From positions 28,022 through 92,021 of the forward strand of contig CAZPQK010000009.1 in the NCBI GenBank assembly GCA_964588695.1: a stretch of DNA of 64,000 nucleotides. The letters are read 5' to 3'. Position numbers and translations under genes: made by a program. This DNA is from an uncultured bacterium (lineage in GTDB: Bacteria; Krumholzibacteriota; Krumholzibacteriia; WVZY01; JAKEHA01). Below the pieces are notes generated by a model, which saw only the letters and a list, made by a program, of their open reading frames with translations, had not been told where the DNA came from and searched no databases. This document shows, piece after piece, positions 912 through 23,118 of the stretch (position 1 is its first letter; the number at the start of each line of letters is the position of its first letter).

Positions 912-978
912 AAATTCCTAAACTCGAGCCACGTTTGTGCCGTTAACGGAAGGTACCCAAGCAAGCACGAGGGCGGGG

Positions 979-3322: not shown

Positions 3323-3330
3323 GCTATCTC

Positions 3331-5337: not shown

Positions 5338-5370
5338 ACGTCCAAGAATTCTCGCTCTTCCGGTGGTCAC

Positions 5371-5399
5371 AAAAAAACCTCGAAGATATCTCTTCGAGG
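5371..5399 (-). terminator. Intrinsic terminator in the riboswitch expression platform
   Basis: Minus strand reads CCTCGAAGA-GATA-TCTTCGAGG-TTTTTTT: a perfect 9-bp stem plus U7. Confidence 0.85.
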
Positions 5400-5477
5400 C
5401 ATGGCGACCACGCCCATGGGGCACCATGGGCTTTGGTTCGCGAACTCTCAATCCTCGAAGAGTCGGGAACGCGTTTG

Positions 5478-5624
5478 CCCAGGTGGGTATCCTGACTTAG
5501 GGCTCGAACATCGCGGCAGCCTTCCCGGAATAATCCAGTGGCTGATGCCGCGACTCGCCCAATCACAGTGGCGGGACCGTGCGGGAATTTCACCCGCTTC
5601 CCCTTTATGCATGTGCGCCTGGGG
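5478..5624 (-). ncRNA. Cobalamin (B12) riboswitch
   Basis: Minus strand reads AGGGGAAGCGGGTGAAATTCCCGCACGGTCCCGCCACTGTG...GCCACTGG...CCGGGAAGG...AAGTCAGGATACC (B12 box), closed by a CCCAGG/CCTGGG P1 stem. Upstream of a TonB-dependent receptor. Confidence 0.93.
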
Positions 5625-5742
5625 ACGCTTGTTTCGACAAGTATGCCCGGCACGGTTCGCTCTGTCAAGGCGCCCGGCAGGGTTGTTTGCCGACGATAGT
5701 TGCCGTATAAAGAGAGCTTCCTTAGCAGGTGGTGTCTGTAAG

Positions 5743-7655: not shown

Positions 7656-9211
7656 TACGAATCCTCCTCGGCACGTCGGAAGAATATTGCGAGCAGTGTT
7701 GATGCCAACAGGACGATTGCTAGAGCGTGCGGCGCGGCGCGATCAAACAGCGCTTCGCTGGCGTATCCCCAAACGTTTAGCGCCAGCGAGTCAAAATTAA
7801 GCGGCGCCAACAGGAACGTCAGAGGTAGTTCTTTGACGCATGATAAAAACACAAGCGCGCCACCCGCGATTAATCCGGGTCTTAAGATTGGGAGCGTTAT
7901 CGACCGAAAGGTTTCGATGGGGCCCAACCCCAACGAACGGGCGGCTTCTTCGACACGCGGAGTTGCCGCGTGCAGACCCGCGCGAATCGGCCCTACGGCT
8001 TGAGCCAAAAAGTGTAACGCGTAAGCGACTACCAGAAGCGCGGCGGTTTGATAAAGAATTGGTGTCGTATTCAGCGCAAAAAAGATCAGCCCAAGTCCAA
8101 ATGCCAGAGACGGCGTAGCGTACCCGAGATAGGCCGAACGTTCCGCGACCCGTGACCAAACTGATGGGTATCGGTTGGAGAGAAACGCTAGAGGCAACGC
8201 CAGGCCGAGCGCAACCAGGCACGCAGGAAGGCTTACCCGAAATGAGTCCCAGGTGGCGTTGCCCAACTCGCCCAGAGAAGCAGCCAGCGGGGCTTGTGTC
8301 ATCCAAAAGATGATTACCCAGACCGGGATGACTACCCCCATCAATGCGACCGCGGCGCAAAACAGATGGGCGACGGCGCTCCAACGTCCCAACGCTATCG
8401 GGCCTCTCTGCTTGCGGGCACCCAGCCCGCTGCGTTGCAACACCAGATCACGTAACAAGCGAAACTCAACTGCGACCAGACTTCCGGTGACGGCGAGTAG
8501 CATTAGTGCCAGCCATGCGGCGTAAATGCGATCGTACGAAGCGTTGTACTGAACAAAGATAGCGTAACTAAAAGTCTCAAACCGCATCAAGCTGACCACG
8601 CCGAAGTCGCCCATGACGTACAACGCTACCAGCATGGCACCCGACAACATCGCTGGCCACAGCTGTGGTAGGGTGACACGCACGAACGTCTCGCGGGTGC
8701 CGCACCCCAGCGAACGAGCGGCTTCGGCAAGCGATGGGTCGAGGTTTATGAACGCTGTACGCAGATTCAAGTACATCAACGGAAAGTTGTAGATAATCAA
8801 CGCGATCGTCGCGCCAACGTAGCCGGTAAGTCGTGGAAACAGTCCGCCCAGGGGACCGGTGGGCGTCCCCAGCGCCAGCAGTGCGTACCCAACGACGTAC
8901 CCGGGAATCGACAATGGAAGCACGCCGAACAGGGTGTAGATAGACCGACCAGACAAGTCGGTGCGCGTGGTCAACCACGCCATGGGTAGTGCGATGGCCA
9001 GACTACCGGTTACGACTGTGATTGCCAGCCCCATGGTATTGACCAGCAACTTAAAGTTGCGCGGGCGCAATACCAGTTCGGCAACGCTATCCCAGTCGGC
9101 GTCGGTCGCGCGGACGCACAAGTAAACGATTGGTAGCAGCACACCCACGCCAGCCGCGGCGGCGGGGAGCAATAAGTACCATGGCGGGCGAATGCCACTT
9201 GCAGGCGACAC
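7655..9211 (-). CDS. fbpB: Fe(III)-type ABC transporter permease (two fused halves)
   Basis: Two EAA motifs (EAARSLGC, EAARSLGL) and many TM helices. Confidence 0.85.
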   Translation of the reverse strand: MSPASGIRPPWYLLLPAAAAGVGVLLPIVYLCVRATDADWDSVAELVLRPRNFKLLVNTMGLAITVVTGSLAIALPMAWLTTRTDLSGRSIYTLFGVLPLSIPGYVVGYALLALGTPTGPLGGLFPRLTGYVGATIALIIYNFPLMYLNLRTAFINLDPSLAEAARSLGCGTRETFVRVTLPQLWPAMLSGAMLVALYVMGDFGVVSLMRFETFSYAIFVQYNASYDRIYAAWLALMLLAVTGSLVAVEFRLLRDLVLQRSGLGARKQRGPIALGRWSAVAHLFCAAVALMGVVIPVWVIIFWMTQAPLAASLGELGNATWDSFRVSLPACLVALGLALPLAFLSNRYPSVWSRVAERSAYLGYATPSLAFGLGLIFFALNTTPILYQTAALLVVAYALHFLAQAVGPIRAGLHAATPRVEEAARSLGLGPIETFRSITLPILRPGLIAGGALVFLSCVKELPLTFLLAPLNFDSLALNVWGYASEALFDRAAPHALAIVLLASTLLAIFFRRAEEDS

Positions 9212-10258
9212 CTAAAGCAGTCCCAACTTTCGTAACAGAGAAAGCGTGCCTTCCAGGTCGTCCAGGTCGGCCAGTCCGACGTTGGGTGCCGCGGTCTGCA
9301 GGTCGGCGGTCTTAACCAAACGCGAATTAGGAATCACAGCGTCGATGACTGGGTATTCGAACACATCGCTGGCAAAGTATTGTTGAGCGTTTGGGCCCAG
9401 CAGAAACTTGACGAATTCCAACGCCGCGTACTTGCGTTGCGAGTTGGCCAGAATGCCCGCTCCGGCCACGTTGACCAGGTTGCCGATGTCGCCTTCCGCA
9501 AAGAACGTCTGCTCCACGGGATAACCGCTGTCACTTTTCTTAAAGCGCAACAGGTAGTAGTGGTTGGGAAGTCCCAGGTCGATTTCTCCCGCGGCAATGG
9601 CTTGTACGATTGCGGTGTTCTTGGGGTACGACTTCGCACCGTTCTCCTTCATTTGGCGAAGCCAGGTTTCGGTGCGTGACTCACCCCAGGCAACCCGCAT
9701 GGCCGTTACGAATGACTGAAATGACGCGTTGGTGGGGGCCCAACCGACGCGGTCGCGCCACGCCGGAGAGAGTAGTTCGGAAACGCTGGCGGGAAGATGG
9801 TCTTCCGATACGCGAGCCGGAGAGTACGCCAATACGCGTGCCCGACCGCTGGTTGCCACCCACGCCGCGTTTGGACTCGCGAACATGCTGGTCACCAAAC
9901 CGCTAACGTCGGACGGAAGGTCGGCAAACAGCCCGGCTTTGGCCACCGCGGACAGTGCTCCCGCGTCTTGTGCCCAAAACACATCGGCGTTGGACTTGTC
10001 GCCCTCTTCCTGTAAGGCGAGCGCCAATTGCGCGCTGTTGCCGTACTTGACGTCAACTTTGATGCCGGTCGCTTCTTCGAACTGTTCGATGATTGGTGCG
10101 ACCAGGCTTTTACTGCGTCCGGCATAAAGCGTAAGCGTATTGTCCTTGTCAGATTTTGCGAACGTCGACTGCGATGCGCCGTCGCTGCCGCCGTCGTTGT
10201 TAGTGCAGCCCAACGCCGCCAATACCGTTAGCGTCGTTAGTAAAGTGCGAAGTTTCAT
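9212..10258 (-). CDS. fbpA: Fe(III) ABC transporter substrate-binding lipoprotein (FbpA/FutA-like)
   Basis: Lipobox ALGC; motifs LYAGR, EEGDKSNADVF, SGRARV and NHYY (tandem Tyr iron ligands). Confidence 0.85.
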   Translation of the reverse strand: MKLRTLLTTLTVLAALGCTNNDGGSDGASQSTFAKSDKDNTLTLYAGRSKSLVAPIIEQFEEATGIKVDVKYGNSAQLALALQEEGDKSNADVFWAQDAGALSAVAKAGLFADLPSDVSGLVTSMFASPNAAWVATSGRARVLAYSPARVSEDHLPASVSELLSPAWRDRVGWAPTNASFQSFVTAMRVAWGESRTETWLRQMKENGAKSYPKNTAIVQAIAAGEIDLGLPNHYYLLRFKKSDSGYPVEQTFFAEGDIGNLVNVAGAGILANSQRKYAALEFVKFLLGPNAQQYFASDVFEYPVIDAVIPNSRLVKTADLQTAAPNVGLADLDDLEGTLSLLRKLGLL

Positions 10259-10262
10259 TTTG

Positions 10263-10934
10263 TTACTCCAGTGTGAAGTCGATTGGGATGATAAACAACA
10301 TATCTTGATCCAAAAAACCAGCGATCGGAAACGGCGCCGAGCGCTCCACCATGTTCAGGACTTCCCGGTCCAGTAAACCATGACCAGACCCGCGATCGAT
10401 TTGCGCGGTTATTACTCCGCCCTTCGATGTTAATACGAGCCGCAGTAACACTTCGCCTTCGAGTCGTCGTGCAATTGCAGTTCTCGGGTATCGCTTGTGG
10501 CGTTCCAACCATGCGACAACCACAGTTTCGACCCCCGGGTCGGCTGCGACTGGATTGGCGCCTGGTTCGCTTCCGATCGGAAGTTCCGAGGTCACCGGTG
10601 CGGCCGGTACGTTGCGGGGAGCAATGTTCGCGTCCGGAAGTTCAAACGACTCCGCCGACTGAGCTGCCTTTTCGTCACCAGAAGTCACAGGTTCTTTCGG
10701 GGCAGCGTTTGCTGACAGCGCCTCTTGTGCGGACGTTTCGGGCGGCACCGTTTCGTTTATCGGAGGCGCAGCCACTGGCGTTGGCGCTTCCGTCGGGGCC
10801 TGAAGCCGGACACGAATAGCCTCGGGCGGGTTCGTTGTCACCGGCTCCGGCAGGCGAACTCCCGCTAGCACCGCGACGTGCAGCGCCGCCGACACAGTTA
10901 GAAGCGTCGCGAACCCCAGGCGGCGTCGGGTCAT
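10263..10934 (-). CDS. tonB: Energy transducer TonB
   Basis: N-terminal TM SAALH, Pro-rich linker and C-terminal YPRTAIARRLEGEV...GSGHGLLDREV. Confidence 0.9.
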   Translation of the reverse strand: MTRRRLGFATLLTVSAALHVAVLAGVRLPEPVTTNPPEAIRVRLQAPTEAPTPVAAPPINETVPPETSAQEALSANAAPKEPVTSGDEKAAQSAESFELPDANIAPRNVPAAPVTSELPIGSEPGANPVAADPGVETVVVAWLERHKRYPRTAIARRLEGEVLLRLVLTSKGGVITAQIDRGSGHGLLDREVLNMVERSAPFPIAGFLDQDMLFIIPIDFTLE

Positions 10935-11332
10935 GGCCGCCCCTGGGTAGCAATCGCTACGTTGGTGACATTGGCCTTTCGCAACTGATCCATCATGTCG
11001 ACAAGGCGTTGCACAGGCTGGTCGCCGTCGGTTTTGATCATTACGGTTTGCTCTTCCTGATTGACGATCAGTCGGGCAACCACTGGTCCGACCTGGTCGA
11101 ACTCAATCCGGTCGCCGTTTACGGCGACGCCACCGCCCGCCAGGAGAACCACGGTGATGTTGTCGATGTCACCGGGCGCCGAACTGCTGGATTCAGGAAG
11201 TTTCAAGTCGATCGCTTCCGCGACCAGGTAGGTGCTGGTTAGCATGAAGAAGATAAGCAGCAACAAGACCACGTCAATCAACGGAGCCATGTTCAGGTTC
11301 ATGGGCATGCGCGAGCGCCCTTCAAACTCCAT
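10931..11332 (-). CDS. exbD: Biopolymer transporter ExbD
   Basis: Motif LNMAPLIDVVLLLLIFFML. Confidence 0.92.
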   Translation of the reverse strand: MEFEGRSRMPMNLNMAPLIDVVLLLLIFFMLTSTYLVAEAIDLKLPESSSSAPGDIDNITVVLLAGGGVAVNGDRIEFDQVGPVVARLIVNQEEQTVMIKTDGDQPVQRLVDMMDQLRKANVTNVAIATQGRP

Positions 11333-12005
11333 AACTGTCGCTCCCGTCGAGCTCCTCTAAAAGCACTGGCCCTTTGGGGATTGCTCGTCCCTTGCGATAG
11401 TGAACCAGTATGCGAACGCTTGCATCTTTCATCGCGGCGCGCAGTTTGTCGACTTCGCCTTCAAAGTAGAAGTAACCCGCCATCGCGGGGATGGCCACGG
11501 CCAGGCCAAACGCGGTGGTTAGCAAGGCTTCCCAGATTCCGCCCGACAACACGGCGGGGTCAACTCGAGAGCCTGCCACTTCCAGATTCATGAACGCCTC
11601 AATCATTCCTAACACCGTGCCCAACAAGCCGCAAAACGGTGCCAGGTGTGCGATCGACGAAAGCATTCGCAACCACGATTCAATTCGACGTACCTGCTCG
11701 GAACCCACGCGACTTATTTCGGCTTCGGAGTCTGCGGTGGACATCGATCGGTCGCGACCGACAGTAATGGCCGACTCGATTACGCGCGCGACCGGCGAAC
11801 GGTCCTGCTTTAGAGCCCGAAAGGCATCGTCAACGGCGCCGTGTTGTAAGTTTCGCATGGTCGCGTCGATGACTTGAGTGTGGCGTGTACCCAGTCGCAG
11901 AAACTGAATTGCTTTGAACGCGATGATGGTCAACGCCAGGACCGACATACCCAAAAGCAGGTACATGATCGGTCCACCCTGTTGCAAAAGTGTATTTGCG
12001 TTCAC
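11322..12005 (-). CDS. exbB: MotA/TolQ/ExbB proton channel
   Basis: Motifs APFCGLLGTVLGMI and GGIWEALLTTAFGLAVAIPA. Confidence 0.92.
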   Translation of the reverse strand: MNANTLLQQGGPIMYLLLGMSVLALTIIAFKAIQFLRLGTRHTQVIDATMRNLQHGAVDDAFRALKQDRSPVARVIESAITVGRDRSMSTADSEAEISRVGSEQVRRIESWLRMLSSIAHLAPFCGLLGTVLGMIEAFMNLEVAGSRVDPAVLSGGIWEALLTTAFGLAVAIPAMAGYFYFEGEVDKLRAAMKDASVRILVHYRKGRAIPKGPVLLEELDGSDSYGV

Positions 12006-12158
12006 TCTAGTATCCCCGGTCAGCGTTCAGGACCACAGGTGGCGGTCACCGTTTCAAACAACAATTAGTCAGTATCGCCCACGGCCACTCATTCGGGAAG
12101 GGTAGATTCTTGATGGCGGGGATGTTGTGTTGTCGCCCGGGTTGATCCTTTTGGTGTG

Positions 12159-12185
12159 GTAACATATTATATACAAATATGTTAC
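12159..12185. promoter_or_regulatory. Perfect 10-7-10 inverted repeat, candidate operator
   Basis: GTAACATATT-ATATACA-AATATGTTAC forms an AT-rich island between the divergent exbB and penicillin acylase genes. Confidence 0.5.
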
Positions 12186-12214
12186 GACGGCAGCGGGCGT
12201 AGCCCAGGGGCAGG

Positions 12215-12243
12215 ATGACAGCGTCTTTCCGGACGGATATAGT
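12215..12243 (+). promoter_or_regulatory. Sigma70-type promoter, probably leaderless transcript
   Basis: ATGACA-N17-TATAGT with the ATG 6 nt after the -10 box. Confidence 0.5.
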
Positions 12244-12249
12244 GGAGGC

Positions 12250-14760
12250 ATGCGAATTTTCAGATTTCTCGTTCTGGCAATGATAACCGTCGCCGCTTTT
12301 GTGGCTTTGAACCGTCCCATCGGGTTGGTCCCGCCCCTGGGCAAGTTTCTAAGTCCGTTTTCGGGGTTCTGGCGAAATGGCTCCATCCACGACCGCATTC
12401 CCGATCAGGTGGAACTTCCGGGATTGTCCGCCAACGTTACCGTTGTGTGGGACAGTCGCATGATCCCACACATTTTTGCCGACAACGACCACGACTTGTA
12501 TTTAGCGCAAGGCTTTGTCACCGCGCGCCATCGATTGTGGCAGATGGAGTTTCAAACCCTAGCGGCAGCCGGACGTTTGTCGGAAGTCTTGGGCGAGCGG
12601 ACAGTGGAGTACGACCGGTTCCAGCGACGCATCGGCATGCTCGCTAGCGCAGAGCAAGGCGTGGACGCGATCATGTCGGAGCCGGAAACACGCGACGCGA
12701 TAAACGCATATCTCTTGGGCGTGAACCATTACATCTCTACGCTCACGCCCGCCGACCTTCCGGTCGAGTACAAGCTACTCGACTATAAACCGCAAACCGC
12801 GACGCCACTGCAGTTGGCGTTGTTGCTAAAATACTTTCAATACGATCTGACATTCAATACGCAGGACTTCGCAATTGAACGATCGTTGCAGTTGCTCGAT
12901 GCGGAAACGTTTCGTTTCTGGTATCCGACTCATCCACCCTACGATGACCCCATCGTTCCCAAAGGGACGCGGTGGAACTTTAAGCCGATTGCGCCGCGAG
13001 TCCCGCAGCCAACCCCCCATCCGCTGGGCCAGCATGCTGAACGCCGCACAAGTCTCGACCGGAAGCCTGGTGGCGTCAGCAGCCATGACGCTACGCCGCA
13101 GTTTGCCTTTCGTGCCAACGCACCCGACCCGAACGACGGTCAGGTACGGGGAAGTAACAACTGGGCGGTTGCACCCGACCGGACGCTGGCCGGTAACGCG
13201 CTTCTTGCGTTTGATCCGCATCTGACGTTGTACCTTCCCAGTTTGTGGTACGAAGTGCAGTTGCACGCGCCGGGGATCAATGTTTATGGCGTGACGCCGC
13301 CGGGGACGCCCGGAGTCGTGTTTGGTTTCAACCAGGACATCGCATGGGGCGCAACCAACGCCGAAGACGACTTGATTGATTGGTATCGACTGGATTTGCG
13401 AGATGACTATCGCGAATACCGTTACCAGGAAAACTGGCTGTCGACGTCTACGCGATTTGAAACAATCAAAGTGCGCGGGAAAAAAGCTGTTGTCGACACC
13501 GTGTACTACAGCCACCACGGCCCGGTGGTTTATCGCGATGGCGAGCCGCGCTTCTTTGAGGCGATTGCCCCCAACACTGCGCTACGTTGGACCGCTCACG
13601 AGCCCACCAACGACCTGCTTGGATTGATGCGGGTAAATCGAGCAAGTGACGTTTCCAGTTTTGCCGCTGCCCTGTCGGAACTTCGTTCGCCGCAGTTGAA
13701 TTTTGCGTTGGCGGCGCGAAGTGGCGATATCGGTATTTGGCATACGGGAATGTATCCAATCCGTCGCCAGGATGTGCGTTGGGGGGTTAAGGATGGGACT
13801 CGGCCCCAGGATGAGTGGGGAGGGTGGATTCCACGCGAACACTTGCCAACGTCGATCAACCCGCAGCGGGGTTGGGTGAGTTCGGCGAATCAAAAGGCCA
13901 CCGACGCGACGTATCCGTACTACATGATCTGGGACTTTGTGAGCGTCGATCGCGCCAGTCGAATAAACGAAGAACTCGCGCGTCTGGACAACGCGACCAC
14001 CGAAGACATGAAGCAACTACAGTTAGACGTGTTTAATCGTCACGCGCGCGAAGTGTTGCCAACTATGCTCGCGTCCGTCGATCAGTCGCAGCTAGCACCC
14101 GACGTGCGGTTGGTCTACAACGAGCTAGCGGCCTGGGACTATCAACACGTCGCCACGTCAACGGCAAGTCGAGTATTCGCATATTGGTGGGCCTACCTTT
14201 ACGATGCGATTTGGGACGACAACGTTCAACGCGAAGGCGGTAACCTGGCGTGGCCGAGTCGTGATGTCACGCGGTACCTGCTAACCAACTTCACCGAACA
14301 TCCGGTTTATGACAACGTTGCTACGGAGAAAAATGAATCTCTCGGCGACGTCGCGCTAGCGTCACTGGTAACGACTGTCGAAAAGATGACCGAGGCGTTC
14401 GGTCCGTTCGGTGCGGAATGGAATACCGGAACCTCACGCGGTACCACCATCGGCCACCTGGGGCGGATCCCCAGCTTTGGTCGCCGGGTGGCGACGGGCG
14501 GAACCAATACGACGGTTAACGCGACCAAGCGTACCAGCGGTCCGTCGTGGCGAATGGTTGCGTCGCTGGAAACGCCAATCCGGGCGTGGACGATTTATCC
14601 GGGAGGACAGTCCGGCAACCCGGGGTCGCGGTATTACGACAGTATGGTGAGTGATTGGGTTAAGGGTAAGTACCGGGAAGCGGTGTTTCTTACCGCGCCC
14701 GACCAGCGCGACGCGCGCATCATCGGTCGAACCGTTTTGACGCCGGAGGCTGGAGAATGA
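12250..14760 (+). CDS. Penicillin acylase family (Ntn hydrolase, S45) protein
   Basis: Motifs IPHIFA, AQGFVTARHRLWQM, autocleavage site GSNNWAV, DPHL and PGGQSGNPGSRYY. Confidence 0.92.
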   Translation: MRIFRFLVLAMITVAAFVALNRPIGLVPPLGKFLSPFSGFWRNGSIHDRIPDQVELPGLSANVTVVWDSRMIPHIFADNDHDLYLAQGFVTARHRLWQMEFQTLAAAGRLSEVLGERTVEYDRFQRRIGMLASAEQGVDAIMSEPETRDAINAYLLGVNHYISTLTPADLPVEYKLLDYKPQTATPLQLALLLKYFQYDLTFNTQDFAIERSLQLLDAETFRFWYPTHPPYDDPIVPKGTRWNFKPIAPRVPQPTPHPLGQHAERRTSLDRKPGGVSSHDATPQFAFRANAPDPNDGQVRGSNNWAVAPDRTLAGNALLAFDPHLTLYLPSLWYEVQLHAPGINVYGVTPPGTPGVVFGFNQDIAWGATNAEDDLIDWYRLDLRDDYREYRYQENWLSTSTRFETIKVRGKKAVVDTVYYSHHGPVVYRDGEPRFFEAIAPNTALRWTAHEPTNDLLGLMRVNRASDVSSFAAALSELRSPQLNFALAARSGDIGIWHTGMYPIRRQDVRWGVKDGTRPQDEWGGWIPREHLPTSINPQRGWVSSANQKATDATYPYYMIWDFVSVDRASRINEELARLDNATTEDMKQLQLDVFNRHAREVLPTMLASVDQSQLAPDVRLVYNELAAWDYQHVATSTASRVFAYWWAYLYDAIWDDNVQREGGNLAWPSRDVTRYLLTNFTEHPVYDNVATEKNESLGDVALASLVTTVEKMTEAFGPFGAEWNTGTSRGTTIGHLGRIPSFGRRVATGGTNTTVNATKRTSGPSWRMVASLETPIRAWTIYPGGQSGNPGSRYYDSMVSDWVKGKYREAVFLTAPDQRDARIIGRTVLTPEAGE

Positions 14761-15116
14761 AAGCTGCAATAAGTATCGTGGCTACGGCAGTGGTGTTGAT
14801 GTTGGCCCATGTTGTCTCTTCGTGGTGGGGTTGGGTGATGGTGCTTCCGTTTATGCTTGGTGTGGTGATGGGGTTCAGGGTCTGGAGAACCGCCTGGACC
14901 ATGGCCATATCGGCGGCGCTGGTATGGGGGGCGCAGTCAGTGTTCTGGACTCTGAACGGATCGGACTTGATCGTCGCGCAAATCGCGGAAACTATGAGCC
15001 TCCCCGCGGGCGCATGGTTGATTGTCGTTACCACGCTTGTTGGCGCGATCGCGGCTGGACTCGCTGGCGCCACCGGTAGTAGTCTTCGACGAATTAAACA
15101 AGCCAAAGCCCACTAA
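14757..15116 (+). CDS. Small hypothetical membrane protein
   Basis: Three to four hydrophobic segments; ATGA overlap with the acylase gene. Confidence 0.7.
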   Translation: MKAAISIVATAVVLMLAHVVSSWWGWVMVLPFMLGVVMGFRVWRTAWTMAISAALVWGAQSVFWTLNGSDLIVAQIAETMSLPAGAWLIVVTTLVGAIAAGLAGATGSSLRRIKQAKAH

Positions 15117-15131
15117 ACCGGAAACTATTAA

Positions 15132-16331
15132 ATGCCCTATCCCACACCGTTTCATCCGCGCACGTCGGAGCTTTGCACCAGTCTGCAGTGGAAAGAGTGG
15201 GCAGGCTATCACGCGGTTCGTTCGTTCGACGTTCACTTTGATGCCGAGTATTACGCGTTCCGCCATTCCTGCGGAATGATCGATGTTACCCCATTGTACA
15301 AATACGACGTGCAGGGGCCGGATGCGGCCCAGTTTCTGCGGCGGGTGATGGTTAAAGACGTTTCGCGGCTGAAGGTTGGTCAGGTGACCTACCTTTGCTG
15401 GTGCGACGACGATGGAAAAGTGATCGACGATGGAACCGTTACCCGGGTTGCCGACGACAACTTTCGGGTTACTGCCGCCGATCCGAACTACCATTGGTTG
15501 GTCCGTTGTAGTCGCGGGTACGACGTCACCGTGTCGGATGTCTCCGACCGGGTAGCCGCGCTGTCTCTGCAGGGGCCGACATCACGCGACGTTCTCAATG
15601 CGGCCTGCGACAAGTCTATTAACAAGCTTCGTTTCTTTCGATCGCGCCCAAATGTAATCGCGGGCGCCCCGGTTACGATATCGCGAACCGGCTACACCGG
15701 TGATCTTGGGTATGAGGTGTGGGTGGAAAACAAACACGCATTGACCGTGTGGGACGCGTTGATGGAGGCGGGAAGGCCCATCGGGATTTTACCGGCGGGG
15801 CTGGATGCGATGGACGTTACCCGGGTGGAAGCGGGTTTCGTTCTGGCGGGAATTGACTATTACAACGCTTTGCACACGATGACCGAACCGCGTAAGTCGT
15901 CTCCGTACGAGATCGACTTGGGATGGACCGTGCAATTGGATCGGGAACCTTTCATTGGTCAGGCCGCACTTCAGCGGGAGCACGACCGCGGGCCCTCGCG
16001 TGTGTTTGTCGGGTTAGATATCGACTGGGATGAACTGGAAGGCTTGTTTCGCGAGCACCGTCTGCCGCCGGAGATTCATCATGGCGGTTGGCGCGATCCG
16101 GTACCGATTTACGATCAGCGCAACCGCTACGTCGGACAAGCGACGAGCGGCGCGTGGTCGCCACTCCTTAAAAAGAACTTCGCTCTAGCGATGGTAACGG
16201 CGCAACACGGTGGATTGGGCACCGAGCTTCGCTTCGAAGTAACCGTAGAATACGAGCGGCGAACGGTGCCAGCCGTGGTGGTGGAAAAGCCGTTCTTTAA
16301 CCCCGAACGCAAACGATCGGTTCCTCGCTAA
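15132..16331 (+). CDS. Aminomethyltransferase (GcvT-like) folate-binding protein
   Basis: Motifs GMIDVTPL, GKVIDDGTV, LQGPTSR, ISRTGYTGDLGYE and RVEAG. No gcvH or gcvP nearby. Confidence 0.88.
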   Translation: MPYPTPFHPRTSELCTSLQWKEWAGYHAVRSFDVHFDAEYYAFRHSCGMIDVTPLYKYDVQGPDAAQFLRRVMVKDVSRLKVGQVTYLCWCDDDGKVIDDGTVTRVADDNFRVTAADPNYHWLVRCSRGYDVTVSDVSDRVAALSLQGPTSRDVLNAACDKSINKLRFFRSRPNVIAGAPVTISRTGYTGDLGYEVWVENKHALTVWDALMEAGRPIGILPAGLDAMDVTRVEAGFVLAGIDYYNALHTMTEPRKSSPYEIDLGWTVQLDREPFIGQAALQREHDRGPSRVFVGLDIDWDELEGLFREHRLPPEIHHGGWRDPVPIYDQRNRYVGQATSGAWSPLLKKNFALAMVTAQHGGLGTELRFEVTVEYERRTVPAVVVEKPFFNPERKRSVPR

Positions 16332-17923
16332 TGGCCAAGAGTAATCAATACGACGCGATTGTTGTCGGCGGCGGACACAACGGTTTGGTTGCGGCCGCGT
16401 ACCTGGCCAAAGCTGGGCGCAAGGTCGTGGTGCTGGAGAAACGCCACGTGCTGGGTGGCGCCGCGGTCAGCGAAGAGGTGTTTCCGGGCTTTACCTTCTC
16501 GGTTTGCTCGTACGTCGTGAGCCTGTTTCGTCCTCACATTATTCGCGAACTCAACCTCACTCGGCATGGCTTCCAACTAATTCCGCTCGACTGTTCGTTT
16601 ACGCCGCACGAAGACGGGCCGGGTCTGGTGCGCTGGCCGGAGGCGGCGCGTACGCGCAAGGAAATCGAGCGCTGGTCAAAGCGCGACGCAGAGATTTATC
16701 CGGAGTTCTCGTTGGCGATGAGCAAAATGGCTTTTTTCGTCAAGAACATCATCGACAACCCGGCCCCCGATGTTACGTCGCTAAACCCGCGCGAGCTTGC
16801 GCGCATTGCCGGTTTAGGAAAAGAACTAACTGCGCTTGGTCCTGATGTCGCCCACCTGCACAATCAGTTGCTGACCATGTCGGCGGTGGACTTCCTAAGC
16901 ATGTGGTTTGAGTCGGAAGCACTAATGGCACCGATGTCGGTGAGTGGGATTATCGGGACCTTCCTTGGCGTTCGTTCGCCGGGAACCGCTTACGTGTTAC
17001 TACATCATTACATGGGCGAAATCGACGGCGCGTTTCGCAGCTGGGGATTTTCGAAGGGCGGTACCGGCGGCGTGAGCATGGCTATTGCGCGCGCGGCCGA
17101 GTCGTTTGGCGCGGAGATCCGAACTTCGGCACCCGTAGCACATATTAAAGTAACGGGGAACCGTGCGACCGGTGTGGTTTTGGAAAACGGCGACGAGCTT
17201 GACGCATCGCTGGTGCTTTCCAACGCGGATCCGCGCGTAACTTTCGACCGATTGGTGGGCAACCAACATCTACCCGACGAGTTTAGCGCGCGGTTGCGAC
17301 GCTACAAGTATCGCGGAAGCTCCGGAAAAGTAAACCTCGCGCTTGACCGTTTTCCCGACTTCACTTGCCGCCCGGGAGACGGCGCGCATGTTCGCGGTGA
17401 TATCGCTATTGCTCCCAGTCTTGACTACCTGGAGCGAGCTTACGACCAGGCCAAATACGGAGAGTTTTCGCAGCGCCCGTATATGAACATCGTGGTGCCG
17501 TCCCTGGTGGATCCCTCGGTGGCGCCGCCCGGCAAACATGTCATGTCGATCTTTGTGCAGTACGCGCCCTACGACATTAAAGAGGGCGCCGACAAATGGC
17601 CGGATAAGCGGGAAGCTTTCGGCGATGCGGTGATCGACGAACTTGCACGTTACGCCCCGGGTATCAAGGACGCAATTCTTCACCGCCAAGTGCTTACGCC
17701 GTGGGATTTGGAACAGGAGATTGGTCTCAGCGAAGGAAACATTTTTCAGGGCGAACTCAGTATCGAACAGCTACTGTTTTTGCGCCCCACCGCCGGTCAC
17801 GCCCGTTACGAATCGCCCATCAAGAACCTTTGGATGTGCGGATCAGCCACGCATCCCGGCGGCGGCATTATGGGATCTCCCGGCGAACTGGCAGCAAAAC
17901 GGGCTATTGCGCTTGGGGCTTAG
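16331..17923 (+). CDS. Phytoene-dehydrogenase-like FAD-dependent oxidoreductase (copy 1)
   Basis: Rossmann motif GGGHNGLVAAAYLA, LGGAA, and C-terminal MCGSATHPGGGIMG. Confidence 0.88.
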   Translation: MAKSNQYDAIVVGGGHNGLVAAAYLAKAGRKVVVLEKRHVLGGAAVSEEVFPGFTFSVCSYVVSLFRPHIIRELNLTRHGFQLIPLDCSFTPHEDGPGLVRWPEAARTRKEIERWSKRDAEIYPEFSLAMSKMAFFVKNIIDNPAPDVTSLNPRELARIAGLGKELTALGPDVAHLHNQLLTMSAVDFLSMWFESEALMAPMSVSGIIGTFLGVRSPGTAYVLLHHYMGEIDGAFRSWGFSKGGTGGVSMAIARAAESFGAEIRTSAPVAHIKVTGNRATGVVLENGDELDASLVLSNADPRVTFDRLVGNQHLPDEFSARLRRYKYRGSSGKVNLALDRFPDFTCRPGDGAHVRGDIAIAPSLDYLERAYDQAKYGEFSQRPYMNIVVPSLVDPSVAPPGKHVMSIFVQYAPYDIKEGADKWPDKREAFGDAVIDELARYAPGIKDAILHRQVLTPWDLEQEIGLSEGNIFQGELSIEQLLFLRPTAGHARYESPIKNLWMCGSATHPGGGIMGSPGELAAKRAIALGA

Positions 17924-17961
17924 CCGCGTTCGCGCATTGTGCTAGACTCAAACCTGAGCTT

Positions 17962-18390
17962 ATGAGTCATCCCGCCGCCAAGAGTCACTTTGATCGCTCG
18001 ATCGACGCGTTAACGCAGGTCTTTGGTTTTCTGGAGTCCTGCTACCAGCAGATGGATATTGGGGAATCGGTGCAGTACGCGGTGAACCTCTCGGTTGAAG
18101 AGCTTTTTACCAACATCGTCAAATATAGTCCGGATACCGGCAACGCAGTCGAAGTTGCGCTTGTGCGCGAACCCGGTCGAGTCACGATTCGCATCGTAGA
18201 CGAAGACACCGAGAAGTTTGACGTCACCAGGCCGTCGGAGTTTGACCCCGAGATGGGCTTGGAAGATCGGCGTGAGGGTGGGGTGGGGCTGCATCTGGTG
18301 CAATCGATGATGGACGAAATCAACTACGACTACAAAAATAGAACCGCGCGCATCACGCTGGTGAAATACGTGGAGGAAAGTGATGTTTGA
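17962..18390 (+). CDS. RsbW/SpoIIAB-like anti-sigma factor Ser kinase (HATPase_c)
   Basis: N-box EELFTNIVKY, FDVT and G2 GGVGLHLVQSMMDEI. An extended -10 (TGcTAGACT) lies just upstream. Confidence 0.85.
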   Translation: MSHPAAKSHFDRSIDALTQVFGFLESCYQQMDIGESVQYAVNLSVEELFTNIVKYSPDTGNAVEVALVREPGRVTIRIVDEDTEKFDVTRPSEFDPEMGLEDRREGGVGLHLVQSMMDEINYDYKNRTARITLVKYVEESDV

Positions 18391-18664
18391 GATTCGCATC
18401 GACGGGGACACGGTCTATCTGTCTGGGCGCCTGGATGCCACCAGTGTCGATCGCGCCCGGGACACCCTCAATCTGGTGGAAAGCGACGCGCGGGTCGACT
18501 TTGACGGACTGGGTTACATTTCTAGTGCCGGGCTGGGGGTTCTCTTGGGGACCCAGAAACGCCTCAGCGCTTCCGGTCATTCCCTGACATTGACCAACCT
18601 CAACCCCCATATCCGCGAAATCTTTCGAATTGCAGGATTCGACAAGGTATTTGCAATCGAATAG
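18380..18664 (+). CDS. STAS-domain anti-anti-sigma factor (RsbV/SpoIIAA-like)
   Basis: Motifs LSGRLD, phosphoacceptor YISSAGLG and IREIFRIAGF. Overlaps the upstream kinase gene. Confidence 0.9.
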   Translation: MMFEIRIDGDTVYLSGRLDATSVDRARDTLNLVESDARVDFDGLGYISSAGLGVLLGTQKRLSASGHSLTLTNLNPHIREIFRIAGFDKVFAIE

Positions 18665-18858
18665 AAATAAATCACTTAAGTAAAAAGCGGTACCGACCGA
18701 AATTCCTACCAACTTCGCGGCTAATTCGTTTGTATTTCTTAGTTGAAAGTATGAATGACCGCGGCAACGCGATGCCTCACGGATATCGGCCGTATGATCC
18801 CGCCCCCGGGTAGCGCATCATCCGCTCGGCAAAGCGCGTCACACAAGGAGGAATCAAC

Positions 18859-20058
18859 ATGGGCAAGAACAAAGGGTTCGCAATAGCCCTCAGTGTTCTG
18901 GTGATCGCTGCCATCGGCTACTTTAGCTTTTTAAGCCCGGGTCCCGATGAGAACGAATTGACCGGCGCCATCGGCACCGTGGAAAAGTACCGCGCCGACC
19001 AGATTAACGAATCCGACGTCGTCACCGGCGAGACCATTCCCAACTTTGACGACATCGTCGGCGAATGGTTTAACGACGAAGGCGTCATCGAAAGCGTGAA
19101 CGGTTTGCTTGGCCGCGCATCGTTGCAGGAGCGTGCGAGCTTTTTCGAGCGCGCCAGCATGCAGGAAAAATCGGCCATCCTGGGTCGCGCGTCCGTTCAG
19201 GAACGCGCCAGCATGTTCGAACGCGCCAACCTGCAAGAACGTGTTGATATGTTTGGTCGCGCGAGCGCGCAAGAGCGGTCGAACTTCTTCGAGCGCGCCG
19301 GTATTCAGGAAGCTGACTTCAACCGGGCTTCCCTGCAGGGTCGTGCCAGTATGCTAGGCCGCGCCAACGCGCAAGAACGTGCTAGCTTCTTCGAGCGTGC
19401 CAATATGCAGGAGCGCGCCGCGATTCTTGGCCGGGCTTCGCTGCAGGAGCGGGCTAATTTCTTTGCTCGCGCAAATATGCAGGAAAAAGCTGCCATTCTT
19501 GGCCGGGCTTCAATGCAAGAAAAAGCGAGTCTCTTTGAGCGCGCAAGCATGCAGGAACGCGCCCGCATGCTGGACCGGGTTTCGCTGCAGGGTAAAGCTG
19601 CATTTCTGGAGCGTGCTTCGCTGCAAGAGCGCGCTGCCATGTTGGGTCGTGCCGAAGCTCAAGAGCGCGCCGCAATGCTAGGGCGTTGCTCTGCGCAGGA
19701 GAAAGCGAGCTTGTTTGAGCGCGCGAACTTGCAGGAGCGAGTCGACATGTTCGGTCGCGCCAGCGTACAAGAGCGTGCGAGTTTCTTTGAGCGCTCCGGC
19801 GTAAAGGAAGCCGACTTTAACCGGGCGTCGCTACAGGAGCGCGCAAACATGCTGGGACGTGCGTCGATGCAGGAGCGTGCTAGCTTCTTCGAGCGCGCCA
19901 ACATGCAGGAGCGCGCGAACATCCTTGAGCGTGCCAGTATGCAGGAACGCGCCGCCGTTTTTGCCCGAGCCAACATGCAGGAACGTGCTGCGATGCTGGG
20001 ACGTGCGTCGGTGAAGGAACGCGCCAGTGTGTTTCAGCGTGCGTGGATGGGTCAATAG
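18859..20058 (+). CDS. Membrane-anchored or secreted tandem-repeat protein of unknown function
   Basis: Strong RBS AAGGAGG; N-terminal TM FAIALSVLVIAAIGYFSFL; acidic linker; residues 85-392 are 26 repeats. Confidence 0.85.
   Translation: MGKNKGFAIALSVLVIAAIGYFSFLSPGPDENELTGAIGTVEKYRADQINESDVVTGETIPNFDDIVGEWFNDEGVIESVNGLLGRASLQERASFFERASMQEKSAILGRASVQERASMFERANLQERVDMFGRASAQERSNFFERAGIQEADFNRASLQGRASMLGRANAQERASFFERANMQERAAILGRASLQERANFFARANMQEKAAILGRASMQEKASLFERASMQERARMLDRVSLQGKAAFLERASLQERAAMLGRAEAQERAAMLGRCSAQEKASLFERANLQERVDMFGRASVQERASFFERSGVKEADFNRASLQERANMLGRASMQERASFFERANMQERANILERASMQERAAVFARANMQERAAMLGRASVKERASVFQRAWMGQ
19111..20055 (+). repeat. Coding tandem repeat, 36-nt (12-aa) period, consensus [GE]RA[SN][LM]QERAxx[FL]
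   Basis: 24 units of 12 aa plus two 10-aa units (ERAGIQEADF, ERSGVKEADF) 14 units apart, then a partial unit. Confidence 0.95.
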
Positions 20059-20081
20059 GAACAAGCTTTAGCCTTGATCGC

Positions 20082-20121
20082 GAGGTGCTGTGGCGATACC
20101 GTCACAGCACCTCTCTTTTTT
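20082..20121 (+). terminator. Intrinsic terminator between the repeat gene and the outer-membrane protein gene
   Basis: GAGGTGCTGTGGCG-ATAC-CGTCACAGCACCTC followed by TCTTTTTT. Confidence 0.75.
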
Positions 20122-20130
20122 GGAGTCGCC

Positions 20131-23118
20131 ATGGGTTGTCGTTTGCTTGTTTCACTTGTGGTCGCGGTAAGTGTGGCCGCCGCCGTATTTGTCGCGCCCG
20201 CCAGCGCCCAGTTTAAGTGGCAAACACTTACGACCAACAACATGCGCCTCGTTTACTACGACCCCGAGCACGCCTACGTGTTGCCGCATCTTGCGAGATG
20301 TTTCGAAAACACGATGGGGTTCTACCATGACTTCCTGGGCTACGTTCCGACCGAAGAAGTAACAATCCTGCTGCAGGACTTCGACGATCACGGCTACGCG
20401 GGAACGTCGACGATTCCCAACAACTACATTACGCTTGGTATCGAGCCGTTCGAATATGTTTACGAGACTTGTCCAACCAACGAGCGTTTTAATTGGGTGA
20501 TCAACCACGAGCTTTTTCACGTGGTTGCGTCGGAGAAAGCCGCGGGCACCGACAACCTCTATCGCCGGTTGTTCTTTGGGAAGGTTGCAGCGGTATCCAA
20601 AGATCCGGTCTCGATGTTTTACAGCTACTTGTCGAACCCTCGTCGGTATGCTCCACGGTGGTACCACGAAGGTATCGCAGTGTTCATGGAAACATGGATG
20701 GCCGGCGGTGTTGGCCGGTCGTTGGGCGGTTACGATGAGATGGTGTTCCGCAGCATGGTAGCCAATAACGATTACTTCTACGATGTCGTTGGTTTGGAGT
20801 CGGAAGGTACCACCAGTGACTTCCAGATTGGCCAGAACAGCTACCTGTACGGCACACGGTTCATGAGTCATCTCGCGGTTAAATTTGGCCCCGAGAAAGT
20901 GGTAGCGTGGGTCGATCGCGCCCCCGGCACCAGGGCTAGTTTTCGCGCGCAGTTTAGGCAAACCTTCGGCACGACCCTCGACGACGAATGGCGCGCGTGG
21001 ATTCAGGACGAAAGGATCTGGCAGCAGGGAAACCTGGCTCGGATACGCGAGTTTCCGGTGACTCCACAACGCAACGTTGGCCCGCGGGCTTTCGGTTCGG
21101 TGTCGCGCGGGTACTATGACGAAGACCTCGACCAGCTCATTGTTGCGGTCAACTATCCTGGCGAGTTCGCTCATGTTGCTTCGGTCGGTCTCACCAATGG
21201 CGAAGTCAAGAAAGTCTGCGAAGTCCAGACGCCGGCATTGTACTACGTGTGCGCAACTGCCTACGATCCGCAGCATCATCGGCTTTATTACACCACTAAC
21301 AACGGTAAGCACTGGCGAGACCTTAATGTTCTCGACGTGGTAAGCGGCGAAACGACGCGTTTGATCGACAATATACGCACCGGAGATTTGTCGTTTAATC
21401 GTGCGGACGGTTCCATCTGGGGTGTGCAGCATCACAATGGTAAAAGCGCCATCGTTCGCATTGCGCCGCCCTACACGCAGTGGGAAAACATCACCGAATT
21501 GTATACGCTCCCTTTTGGTCGCGACCTCTATGACCTGGATGTGTCGCCAGACGGCAATCACCTGGTGGGTTCGATGTTTGGTGTAACCGGCCGCGCTCAG
21601 TTGGTGCGGTTTGATACCAAAGCCCTCATGAATGGGGATGCGGGGTACAACGTTCTCTATGAGTTTGTAAACACCGCGCCGTATGGATTCAACTACTCTG
21701 CGGATGGCCGGTACGTTTATGGCAGTGCGTACCAGACGGGTGCTTCTAACGTGTTCCGCTTTGATTTCGAAACCGAAGAAATGGCGTGCCTGTCCAATGT
21801 TGAGACCGGATATTTTCGCCCGGTTCCGTTACGTGGTTTAACCCGCCCGTCGTCCGCTGCCGCTGATTCGTTGATTGTGTTTCACTACGGCTCCGAGGGT
21901 TTGCGTCCGGTACTGATATCGGAACGCAAACTGGAGGACGTTAACGCCGTGCGATACCTGGGTAACGAAATCGTAACCCGCCATCCGGTTGTTCGCGACT
22001 GGAAGCTGGGTTCGCCTTTGGATGTCGACCTGGGAGCTGTCAAGCAATCGCAGGGTGACTACAGCAAGTGGGGCAACACCGGGGTCGCGTCAATGTATCC
22101 TATCGTGGAGTCGTACAAGGAACGAGCCGCGGTGGGATTTCGGTTAAACTTTATGGATCCGGTTGGGTTGCACGGTGGCGACGTATCGCTAACGTTCTCT
22201 CCTGATAAGCTTCCCGACAACGAGCAGTGGCACAGCTCGTTGACCTATCGCAGTTATCCTTGGACGTTGGGTGCCAGTCTTAACCGTGCAGACTTCTATG
22301 ATTTCTTCGGCCCCACCAGGACCAGCCGCAAAGGCCGTTCGGTGTCGCTTGCCTACGATGGTGTTGTGATCGCGGACAAACCACGGTACCTGAATTACAC
22401 GCTGTCGAGCGCGTATTACGGAGGCCTTGAAACCGACCCCGACTTTCAAAACGTGGACGCAACTTACACCGAGTTTGCTACCGCAAGCGCACGGCTGGAC
22501 TACAAGCGCGAGCGCCGATCGATTGGCGCCGTCGATGTCGAGAAAGGGCTGTTATGGGGTACGGGTGTGCATGGCAATCTGGTCAACGAGGAAGTTTATC
22601 TTAACGCCGATGGTCATTGGGATGTTGGAGTAACGACGCCGTGGGATCATTCGTCGCTGTGGTTGCGCACCGCGGCCGGGTACTCGTTCGGCGACCGCGA
22701 AGACTCGTTCGCCAACTTCTTTTTTGGCGGCTTTGGCAACAACTACGTCGATCATCGCGAAGTAAAGCGCTACCGCGACGCGGTAAGCTTTCCGGGATTG
22801 GAACTTAACGAAGTTGGCGGAACCAACTACGCCAAAGCGATGTTGGAGTGGACGCTGCCCGCGATGCGCTTCCGGCGTTTTGGGCTGCCGGTACTCTACT
22901 GCACCTGGGCGCGGACAGCGCTTTTTTCCAGCGGCCTGTTTACCAATGTTTCCAGCGAATCGACACAACGAGAACTCCTGAACGTGGGCGGTCAGGTTGA
23001 CTTTCGTCTGGTGTTCTTCTCTGGGCTTTCGTCAACACTATCGGTAGGCTACGCGGTCGCTTTCGAAGACGGAAGGTCTCCACAAACCGAACTCATGATC
23101 AGCCTTCGCATTCTATGA
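20131..23118 (+). CDS. Large outer-membrane protein: gluzincin peptidase domain, TolB/PD40-like propeller and probable Omp85-type beta-barrel
   Basis: Signal peptide ending APASA; HELFH and PRWYHEGIA zinc motifs; propeller-like DVSPDG and YSADG; aromatic-rich amphipathic C-terminal strands. ATG at 20131 has a GGAG RBS. The barrel family is inferred. Confidence 0.7.
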   Translation: MGCRLLVSLVVAVSVAAAVFVAPASAQFKWQTLTTNNMRLVYYDPEHAYVLPHLARCFENTMGFYHDFLGYVPTEEVTILLQDFDDHGYAGTSTIPNNYITLGIEPFEYVYETCPTNERFNWVINHELFHVVASEKAAGTDNLYRRLFFGKVAAVSKDPVSMFYSYLSNPRRYAPRWYHEGIAVFMETWMAGGVGRSLGGYDEMVFRSMVANNDYFYDVVGLESEGTTSDFQIGQNSYLYGTRFMSHLAVKFGPEKVVAWVDRAPGTRASFRAQFRQTFGTTLDDEWRAWIQDERIWQQGNLARIREFPVTPQRNVGPRAFGSVSRGYYDEDLDQLIVAVNYPGEFAHVASVGLTNGEVKKVCEVQTPALYYVCATAYDPQHHRLYYTTNNGKHWRDLNVLDVVSGETTRLIDNIRTGDLSFNRADGSIWGVQHHNGKSAIVRIAPPYTQWENITELYTLPFGRDLYDLDVSPDGNHLVGSMFGVTGRAQLVRFDTKALMNGDAGYNVLYEFVNTAPYGFNYSADGRYVYGSAYQTGASNVFRFDFETEEMACLSNVETGYFRPVPLRGLTRPSSAAADSLIVFHYGSEGLRPVLISERKLEDVNAVRYLGNEIVTRHPVVRDWKLGSPLDVDLGAVKQSQGDYSKWGNTGVASMYPIVESYKERAAVGFRLNFMDPVGLHGGDVSLTFSPDKLPDNEQWHSSLTYRSYPWTLGASLNRADFYDFFGPTRTSRKGRSVSLAYDGVVIADKPRYLNYTLSSAYYGGLETDPDFQNVDATYTEFATASARLDYKRERRSIGAVDVEKGLLWGTGVHGNLVNEEVYLNADGHWDVGVTTPWDHSSLWLRTAAGYSFGDREDSFANFFFGGFGNNYVDHREVKRYRDAVSFPGLELNEVGGTNYAKAMLEWTLPAMRFRRFGLPVLYCTWARTALFSSGLFTNVSSESTQRELLNVGGQVDFRLVFFSGLSSTLSVGYAVAFEDGRSPQTELMISLRIL

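Follow-up and report, generated by a model that had tools for sequence, protein, structure and literature searches.

What does a bacterium gain from a membrane-anchored protein made largely of one short repeat? The question is raised by a repeat protein gene, here called REP (18859..20058, +), in 64,000 nucleotides of contig CAZPQK010000009.1 (positions 28,022 to 92,021, forward strand; assembly GCA_964588695.1) from an uncultured bacterium of the phylum Krumholzibacteriota. This whole stretch is referred to below as the window, and the conserved ~1000-aa partner gene that follows REP is called BIG. A preliminary description, made from the letters of the window, took the REP product for a rod or fibre and offered a multi-core peptide precursor or a nitrogen store as alternatives. 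The relatives of REP, its gene neighbourhood and its promoter motif point elsewhere. The gene and its module are a variant within SigW/RsiW/PrsW-type regulated proteolysis, and REP corresponds, as a gene of its own, to the half of an RsiW-like anti-sigma factor that spans the membrane and lies outside it. As to what it does there, we give a probability of about one half to the reading that REP is a sigma-induced paralogue of the anti-sigma factor which lacks the sigma-binding domain and tunes PrsW-type regulated proteolysis, in what would be an envelope-stress switch.

Homology of REP to anti-sigma factors

A word-based search for relatives of REP found two. An exhaustive one, run over 1.84 billion representatives, raised this to 291 (E ≤ 0.001), of which 52 reach E ≤ 1e-10. 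Eight of the matches carry roughly 100-130 extra N-terminal residues, followed by one membrane helix, a GTIGxVKKYRxxQI motif and 12-aa repeats. At the N-terminus, seven of these eight fused forms match the NCBIfam 'anti-sigma factor' model NF052375 (all below cutoff), and a profile built from five of them has one significant solved chain, the anti-sigma domain of Bacillus subtilis RsiW (5wuq_C, E 5e-7), bound to SigW in that structure. The same chain is the sole significant one (E 8e-9) for a profile of the stand-alone anti-sigma factors that adjoin REP, and the neighbouring sigma factor has its best match in SigW models, below their cutoffs. REP itself aligns with what follows the domain: its residues 1-84 share 33-48% identity with the post-domain part of the fused forms (E 1e-7 to 1e-10), and REP and all fused forms have a single membrane helix. 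No N-terminal sigma-binding domain is found in REP, where six residues precede the helix; that domain is present in the fused relatives and in the neighbouring anti-sigma gene. Given the homology to the fused forms and their RsiW-like N-terminal domain, REP is a homologue of the membrane-spanning and outer half of such an RsiW-like protein and lacks its sigma-binding domain.

The N-terminal helix of REP (residues 7-25) is its sole hydrophobic one, flanked by a net charge of +2 before and -3 after, and the cytoplasmic sigma-binding domain of the fused relatives precedes the equivalent single helix. Like RsiW-type proteins, REP is predicted to pass the inner membrane once and to carry an extracytoplasmic C-terminal domain, homologous to that of genuine members; in relatives it adjoins the sigma and anti-sigma genes, and PrsW belongs to the same module.

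Past the helix, REP consists of a conserved disordered motif (LTGAIGTVEKYRADQI) and then 315 aa of repeats. In the family alignment conservation is highest in this membrane-proximal motif and lowest in the repeats. All three invariant columns (I38, Q48 and D53) fall in the motif, as do four of the five nearly invariant ones (G36, G39, I49 and V54), and the fused anti-sigma forms retain it. A short G-T/A-M/I/L motif is also seen ~20-25 residues past the membrane helix in the stand-alone anti-sigma factors (alignment A2, in which rows L039, L040 and L047 are probably wrong-frame open reading frames). In the anti-sigma factor of this genome (L016:2058-2708), NGLTATIGG resembles ELTGAIGTV of REP at a similar distance from the membrane; the likeness may reflect a shared protease recognition site or chance.

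REP belongs to a conserved gene module

A match to REP is present in 33 of the 41 genomes searched, this genome counted. Its own family has one in 21 of 22 genomes and a second family of the same order in 10 of 13, and the matches vary in length. Across 201 genomes of the phylum, the N-terminal part of REP occurs in 60 and BIG in 71, and 59 of the 60 REP-positive genomes also have BIG. Twelve genomes have BIG only; the four of them that were inspected all carry a divergent REP-like gene at the equivalent place, with the equivalent membrane helix and motif and with different repeats. Divergent genes in the REP position are found at L130:5023-6786 (G069), L129:5572-7008 (G037) and L132:4727-6913 (G185). 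The divergent proteins retain the motif as G-T/A-I/V-G...Q-I/V...D-V/I and differ in their C-terminal regions. On this comparison the motif is the constant part of the REP family, and the type of repeat replaceable.

The gene order in relatives is extracytoplasmic function (ECF) sigma factor, anti-sigma factor, REP, BIG and PrsW. Among metagenome loci of 7 kb or more (21 loci) the full order is RsbW-like kinase, STAS, SigW-like ECF sigma, RsiW-like anti-sigma, REP, BIG and PrsW. By BLAST, seven of these loci are fused, 12 have separate anti-sigma and REP genes, and in two one gene was undetected. In the seven fused loci the fused gene occupies the anti-sigma slot between sigma and BIG, and no separate anti-sigma gene was detected. 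BIG (44-53% identity) and PrsW (43-51%) follow wherever the contig extends. Within the phylum, 10 loci spread over three additional families show an equivalent gene order, four further loci have the order of the module too, and BIG adjoins REP in nearly all loci examined. We found no description of this module in the literature searched, the texts of PMC7826278 and PMC7406223 included, though not the supplements of PMC7826278 on ECF-group contexts, which may describe the sigma group.

A promoter motif shared with the sigma gene, and a split locus

An ECF-type promoter motif precedes REP (G000:C9:46730-46755 in the pattern scan of the genome). CCAACTT-N14-15-TGTA stands upstream of REP in the window and in 8 of 8 loci examined in relatives (9/9 loci in its family). 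Both in this genome and among the relatives, the ECF sigma gene is preceded by it as well. From the shared motif we infer that REP is a regulon member of the module's own sigma factor. In metagenome loci the motif precedes the sigma gene in 13 of 17 cases and REP in 5 of 11 unfused ones. The scan of the genome for CCAACTT-N15-18-TGTA gave nine sites versus one for the reversed control and no wider regulon: the sites other than that of REP all lie inside long open reading frames, two of them being also ~90 nt upstream of a 331-aa frame and ~290 nt upstream of a 279-aa frame. The copy ~90 nt before the 331-aa frame (CCAACTTTTCCCGATCGTGCCTTGTA, L027:1501-1526, G000:C3:297337-297362) may mark a further regulon member or be there by chance.

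The module is split in this genome. Its first half, at the left edge of the window, consists of STAS, sigma, anti-sigma, the shorter PrsW (241 aa) and a Ser/Thr kinase, the sigma gene (G000:C9:26991-27542) and the anti-sigma match (beginning at 27560) just before its start; the second half, RsbW, STAS, REP, BIG and PrsW, lies inside it. There are thus two PrsW paralogues, one per half, and STAS genes occur twice, in the RsbW/STAS pair before REP and before the sigma gene. The ~16 kb block that separates the halves (1925-17923), in this genome only, encodes transport and catabolic functions (a TonB-dependent receptor, an ABC importer, ExbB/ExbD/TonB, a penicillin amidase, a GcvT-like protein and an amine oxidase) and looks like an insertion or rearrangement.

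A kept internal start in the fused genes

Eighty metagenome loci hold 68 motif-bearing open reading frames, 27 of them fused, 29 unfused and 12 ambiguous (mostly cut by contig ends). All 27 fused frames have an in-frame internal start (26 ATG, one TTG) 32-44 codons before the motif. It sits just ahead of the membrane helix and has a GGAGG-type Shine-Dalgarno sequence upstream, found at only 6 of the 287 other internal ATG codons of these frames. The codon before GAG varies in the internal Shine-Dalgarno (CAG, TCG, TTG, AAG, CTG or GAG, and one case is out of frame), and with it the encoded residue (Q, S, L, K or E); G-GAG-G is nonetheless kept, which points to selection on the RNA. In the unfused homologues a strong Shine-Dalgarno stands at the equivalent start in 29 of 29. 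The predicted short product of the fused genes equals the stand-alone REP.

Gene-in-gene isoforms of this kind, in which an in-frame internal start gives a short form that works with the full-length protein, are described for phage endolysins and for Vibrio Fha (PMC12203907, PMC13389060). The fused anti-sigma genes share with them the in-frame internal start, here predicted from sequence alone. In the literature searched we found no internal-start isoforms described for anti-sigma factors.

The repeats are old and under selection on the protein

The preliminary description had seen in REP a hierarchy of hexamers, 12-aa units and a 166-aa duplication marked by two kink units, in a region free of proline and rich in Ala, Arg, Glu and Gln. 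This account holds. The repeat region has 44 hexamer starts (regex x-R-[AVCS]) at spacings of 6 or 12 residues, save two spacings of 16 that hold the kink units. Amino acid self-identity is 0.36 at lag 6, 0.47 at lag 12, 0.52 at lag 24 and 0.74 at lag 166, where chance, calculated from the composition of the repeats, would give ~0.10 and the off-phase lags 164 and 168 give 0.02-0.03; the 24-aa period is a level that had been missed. The 315 residues include 60 Ala, 47 Arg, 35 Glu, 28 Ser, 26 Gln and no Pro, so that Ala, Arg, Glu and Gln make up 53%. The kink motif, ADF-x-R-x-S, is conserved at the same position in relatives.

The two halves of the duplication (residues 85-233 and 251-399) are identical at 110 of 149 residues (74%), with 67% nucleotide identity. 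Different codons are used at 66 of these 110 residues, which matches random draws from the gene's own codon usage (64.7 ± 4.5 in 2000 shuffles), and synonymous sites between the halves are therefore saturated. By the Nei-Gojobori method the proportion of synonymous differences (pS) is 0.82 and that of nonsynonymous differences (pN) 0.18, with a nonsynonymous distance (dN) of 0.21. The longest exact direct nucleotide repeat within the gene is 20 nt. As an example, ERANLQERVDMF is encoded both at 19219-19254 and at 19717-19752, with 9 of the 12 codons different. The spacing of the kink motifs is exactly 166 aa in P0006, L004, L006, L007 and L008 and 167 in L011 and L012, relatives at 35-45% identity; the super-repeat is therefore older than these genera. 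The repeats are old and maintained by selection on the protein, not by slippage, as had been proposed from the window. Open reading frames of 73-113 aa overlap the repeats in other frames or on the minus strand (19305-19640, -; 19659-19976, -; 19379-19681, +); we read those across 19109-20064 as Arg/Ala/Ser-rich shadows of the repeated codons and not as separate genes.

A predicted helical solenoid with a sequence likeness to MgtE_N

Structure prediction and a Foldseek search, both proposed in the preliminary description, gave a confident solenoid and no match in the Protein Data Bank (PDB) at E ≤ 0.001, respectively. The AlphaFold2 model, made with the family alignment, has 29 helices, a mean predicted local distance difference test score (pLDDT) of 85 and a predicted TM-score (pTM) of 0.62. 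The repeat helices are mostly of 8-10 residues, one per 12 residues, with pLDDT >90 over most of the repeats; residues 29-59 fall below 50 and are disordered. The solenoid is predicted to face the periplasm, the host being diderm as judged by the TonB, ExbB/ExbD and TonB-dependent receptor genes of the window.

The likeness to MgtE-N and FliG that had been suggested stands at the level of sequence, and no solved structure superposes well. Pfam MgtE_N (PF03448) matches REP in four stretches (53.3 bits, cutoff 25.9, E 4.3e-14) and is the only Pfam family above cutoff; no CBS or MgtE domain was matched, and LED_rpt (PF20854) reaches 37.4 bits, under its cutoff of 59, as the other families listed also stay under theirs. 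Ten of 13 relatives scanned also exceed the MgtE_N cutoff (31-98 bits), one is just below it and two have no match. With phmmer, REP found nothing below E 0.17 among PDB sequences, and a profile of 26 family members gave weak matches to MgtE chains or N-domains (E 0.002-0.02) and to FliG (0.05-0.1). Comparison of the model with 48,161 chains by VIA-align gave a best Z of 4.8, with bundles of the CARD/death-domain type in the top rows (~75 aligned residues) and no MgtE among the 50 best rows. A second structural comparison, over the list from Foldseek, reached a best Z of 2.2, and the best score in the protein Atlas (0.75) lies below the useful level. With the armadillo-like repeats of the MgtE N-domain and FliG, REP shares the Pfam match, the weak profile matches and the ~12-residue period of short helices. 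The secondary structure of the model suits a superhelical bundle of this kind, and the fold comparisons speak against no family.

The confident MgtE_N match explains little of REP, since CBS and channel parts are absent from it and its repeats are predicted to be periplasmic, whereas the MgtE N-domain is cytoplasmic. That domain has roughly ten helices; REP has ~26 in strict register. We rejected the identification of REP as an MgtE magnesium transporter on the same grounds and on its single N-terminal helix with an N-in/C-out charge pattern. A 365-aa relative, P0003, is named 'Mg/Co/Ni transporter MgtE' by one source; since this protein consists of no more than a membrane helix and MgtE_N-like repeats, the name seems to have been transferred on the strength of the domain match. 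Three giant proteins, P0005 (5016 aa), P0007 (3620 aa) and P0009 (6952 aa), match the REP repeats in 4-11 stretches, where identity is only 18-22% although E ranges from 1e-39 to 5e-54; either they have this type of repeat on a far larger scale, or nothing but period and composition makes them match.

The partner protein BIG and other features of the locus

BIG has no Pfam or NCBIfam match. H145, E146, H149 and E199, an HExxH motif and a later Glu, are invariant in 21 orthologues. In the AlphaFold2 model (pLDDT 78.9, pTM 0.78) the C-terminal third consists of long beta strands and may form a barrel, and Foldseek matches the protein to TolB at a root-mean-square deviation of 3.1-3.3 Å over ~250 columns, the entries including complexes of TolB with colicin peptides. 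Look-alikes in the Atlas carry PD40, Tricorn_N, Omp85 and Peptidase_MA_2, which we treat as leads only. The mechanically called frame begins at TTG 20074; the terminator hairpin (20082-20113) falls inside this extension, which makes ATG 20131, with GGAG 5 nt upstream and a signal-peptide-like sequence behind it, the likelier start, and BIG probably begins there. In the 338-aa PrsW, E77, E78, K81, H142 and H178 are invariant across 14 orthologues (59% mean column identity). Terminator-like G+C-rich hairpins with T runs were also seen by eye between the fused gene and BIG in three fused loci (L054, L066 and L073), and transcription of BIG and PrsW may be lower or separate.

Table 1. Coordinates of REP, its parts and its neighbours in the window.
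Feature	Position	Strand	Basis or remark
Second PrsW-family protease, 241 aa	186..911	+	directly after the orthologous ECF sigma/anti-sigma genes
Ser/Thr protein kinase	937-1923		after the 241-aa PrsW
RsbW-like kinase (HATPase_c_2)	17956..18390	+	domain match; equivalent module position in metagenome loci
STAS-domain antagonist	18380..18664	+	domain match; equivalent module position in metagenome loci
ECF-type promoter motif CCAACTT-N15-TGTA (putative)	18709..18734	+	upstream of REP; shared with the ECF sigma gene
Shine-Dalgarno AAGGAGG of REP	18845..18851	+	read from sequence; ATG 7 nt downstream
REP	18859..20058	+	open reading frame, 399 aa
Single transmembrane helix of REP, residues 7-25	18877..18933	+	Kyte-Doolittle peak 2.4; predicted N-in/C-out
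Membrane-proximal motif of REP, residues 34-55 (LTGAIGTVEKYRADQINESDVV)	18958..19023	+	family alignment
Helical repeat region of REP, residues 85-399	19111..20055	+	periods 6, 12, 24 and 166 aa; Pfam MgtE_N; AlphaFold2
First kink unit, residues 145-160 (ERAGIQEADFNRASLQ)	19291..19338	+	16-residue spacing of hexamer starts
Second kink unit, residues 311-326 (ERSGVKEADFNRASLQ)	19789..19836	+	166 aa after the first kink unit
Intrinsic-terminator-like hairpin, then TCTTTTTTGG	20082..20123	+	14-bp stem, 9 G-C pairs; 24 nt past the REP stop
BIG	20131..23118	+	signal peptide, HExxH domain, TolB-like beta-propeller, beta-rich C-terminal third
PrsW-family intramembrane protease, 338 aa	23115..24131	+	Pfam PF13367, 66.8 bits

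What REP may do, and the alternatives

In the reading that we favour, the sigma factor would switch REP on through the shared promoter motif. REP would then sit beside the anti-sigma factor and present an equivalent membrane-proximal motif to PrsW, and perhaps to BIG, acting as a competing substrate or a shield that sets how easily the anti-sigma factor is cleaved; this feedback role would resemble the action of RseB on RseA. Binding or cutting would take place at the conserved disordered motif, and the repeats would form a bulky, stable cap or sensor surface.

Several points weigh against this. The role as competitor or shield is drawn by analogy, and it is just as possible that the regulon has REP as an output and is not regulated by it. 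None of the NCBIfam matches to anti-sigma or SigW models reaches the curated cutoff. In this genome REP is ~19 kb from the sigma and anti-sigma genes, on the same strand, so that the link between them comes from the promoter motif and from the relatives; among the unfused metagenome loci the motif was not found before REP in 6 of 11. The REP-position protein of L130 has tandem 9-aa ALASPxFQx units instead of the 12-aa repeats, and the selection for a specific 12-aa Arg-rich sequence in the window is left unexplained. The short isoform of the fused genes is a prediction from the conserved Shine-Dalgarno and ATG, and the internal Shine-Dalgarno might have another role, in translational pausing, or be left over from a gene fusion. 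No RNA sequencing runs were listed as carrying window positions 18600-21000, for which three DNA runs were listed that may be the source of this DNA. A predicted complex of PrsW with REP residues 1-90 scored 0.00 in two runs, in which the controls were not folded, and so speaks neither for nor against the reading.

More tentatively, the anti-sigma factors of this module may always work as a pair, made of a full-length form that holds the sigma factor and a short form without the sigma-binding domain. The short form would come from the internal start in some lineages and from a separate sigma-dependent gene, REP, in others, and the pair would assemble through the periplasmic solenoids and jointly gate cleavage by PrsW.

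The first rival takes REP for a regulon output, namely a periplasmic, membrane-tethered chaperone or tether that holds or delivers BIG. REP adjoins BIG in nearly all loci and co-occurs with it in all but one of the 60 REP-positive genomes, the propeller of BIG superposes on TolB, for which the matched entries include colicin-peptide complexes, REP carries a conserved disordered motif, and it has the promoter motif of the sigma factor, as regulon members do. There is a possible parallel in MotE of Sinorhizobium, a periplasmic MgtE_N-domain protein that is said to chaperone MotC. Like REP, it is a stand-alone extracytoplasmic protein with MgtE_N-like repeats, but its context is flagellar and that of REP is ECF sigma/PrsW. 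Such a role would leave unexplained why, in the fused loci, the helix, motif and repeats known from REP make up the outer half of the sole anti-sigma factor, and why the internal start of the fused genes is kept. Moreover, the terminator-like hairpin between REP and BIG, present in the window and in at least three fused loci, indicates that a fixed REP:BIG ratio is not required. We consider this rival unlikely.

If the solenoid were instead a sensor, a salt-bridged stack of Arg and Glu would be loosened by pH, ionic strength, divalent cations or cationic peptides, and the PrsW site would open. With 47 Arg and 35 Glu in 315 repeat residues, in strict register, the composition suits such a stack; the repeats relate to the MgtE N-domain through their Pfam match, and that domain moves with Mg2+. 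The relatives, however, swap the Arg-rich SMQER units for TPEER units or for quite different repeats, so that a common chemical trigger is not evident. Among the triggers of the SigW regulon are alkaline shock, salt shock and envelope-active antibiotics (PMC3498285), which speaks for a sensor of this kind. On balance we find this rival improbable.

The preliminary proposal of a structural rod, fibre or periplasmic spacer without a signalling role fares worse. It has on its side a long, regular solenoid predicted with high confidence and a sequence strongly conserved within the protein. In the loci examined, genes in the REP position range about twofold in length (368-811 aa), which argues against a ruler, and conservation in the family is lowest in the repeats and peaks in the membrane-proximal motif. 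The gene is also tied to a fixed module of ECF sigma factor, anti-sigma factor and PrsW, carries the promoter motif of the sigma factor and is homologous to anti-sigma factors, and we regard a purely structural role as very unlikely. The same module membership, homology and promoter motif make a multi-core peptide precursor cut at the regular Arg, or a nitrogen-rich store, extremely improbable: Arg is regularly spaced and two proteases are encoded downstream, but the N-terminal membrane anchor is retained, the fold is confident and not that of a disordered precursor, the units are not identical cores, the repeat sequences differ freely between lineages, and the module has no modification or export genes.

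Relation to known systems and significance

The nearest known system is SigW-RsiW-PrsW of B. subtilis, with which the module shares a sigma factor nearest to SigW models, an anti-sigma N-domain that matches RsiW (5wuq_C), a single-pass anti-sigma factor with an outer domain, and PrsW. In Bacillus, RsiW is cut in its extracytoplasmic part by PrsW, which acts as the site-1 protease (PMC3498285 and PMC8767453); in the papers covered we found no report of an RsiW copy without the sigma-binding domain. Here, in contrast, such a copy exists as a separate gene, and in other lineages an isoform of this kind is predicted from the internal start. Further differences are a diderm host, an outer domain formed by an MgtE_N-like repeat solenoid, and the presence in the module of a ~1000-aa HExxH/TolB-propeller protein and an RsbW/STAS pair. 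RseB resembles REP in being the third gene after sigma and anti-sigma, and the analogy goes no further than this gene order: REP is anchored in the membrane and a paralogue of anti-sigma factors, RseB is a soluble protein, and no relation of sequence or fold is expected.

ECF sigma factors are among the commonest signalling devices of bacteria, and for only a few of them is it known how the anti-sigma factor's outer portion senses and how site-1 cutting proceeds. The module would bring the SigW/RsiW/PrsW scheme of Bacillus into diderm bacteria and add to it an outer domain built as a repeat solenoid, a large partner of the protease/propeller kind and a dedicated short form that lacks the sigma-binding domain. 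The analysis also corrects a likely mis-annotation, that of a relative named a magnesium transporter, and supplies structural work with a naturally occurring protein whose 12-residue helical repeats keep an unusually strict register. Should the short form prove real, it would be a simple, testable way for feedback or stoichiometry to set the trigger level of regulated proteolysis; and if the anti-sigma factors do work as pairs, this would be the first gene-in-gene coding in anti-sigma signalling, and a case of an isoform turning into a gene of its own.

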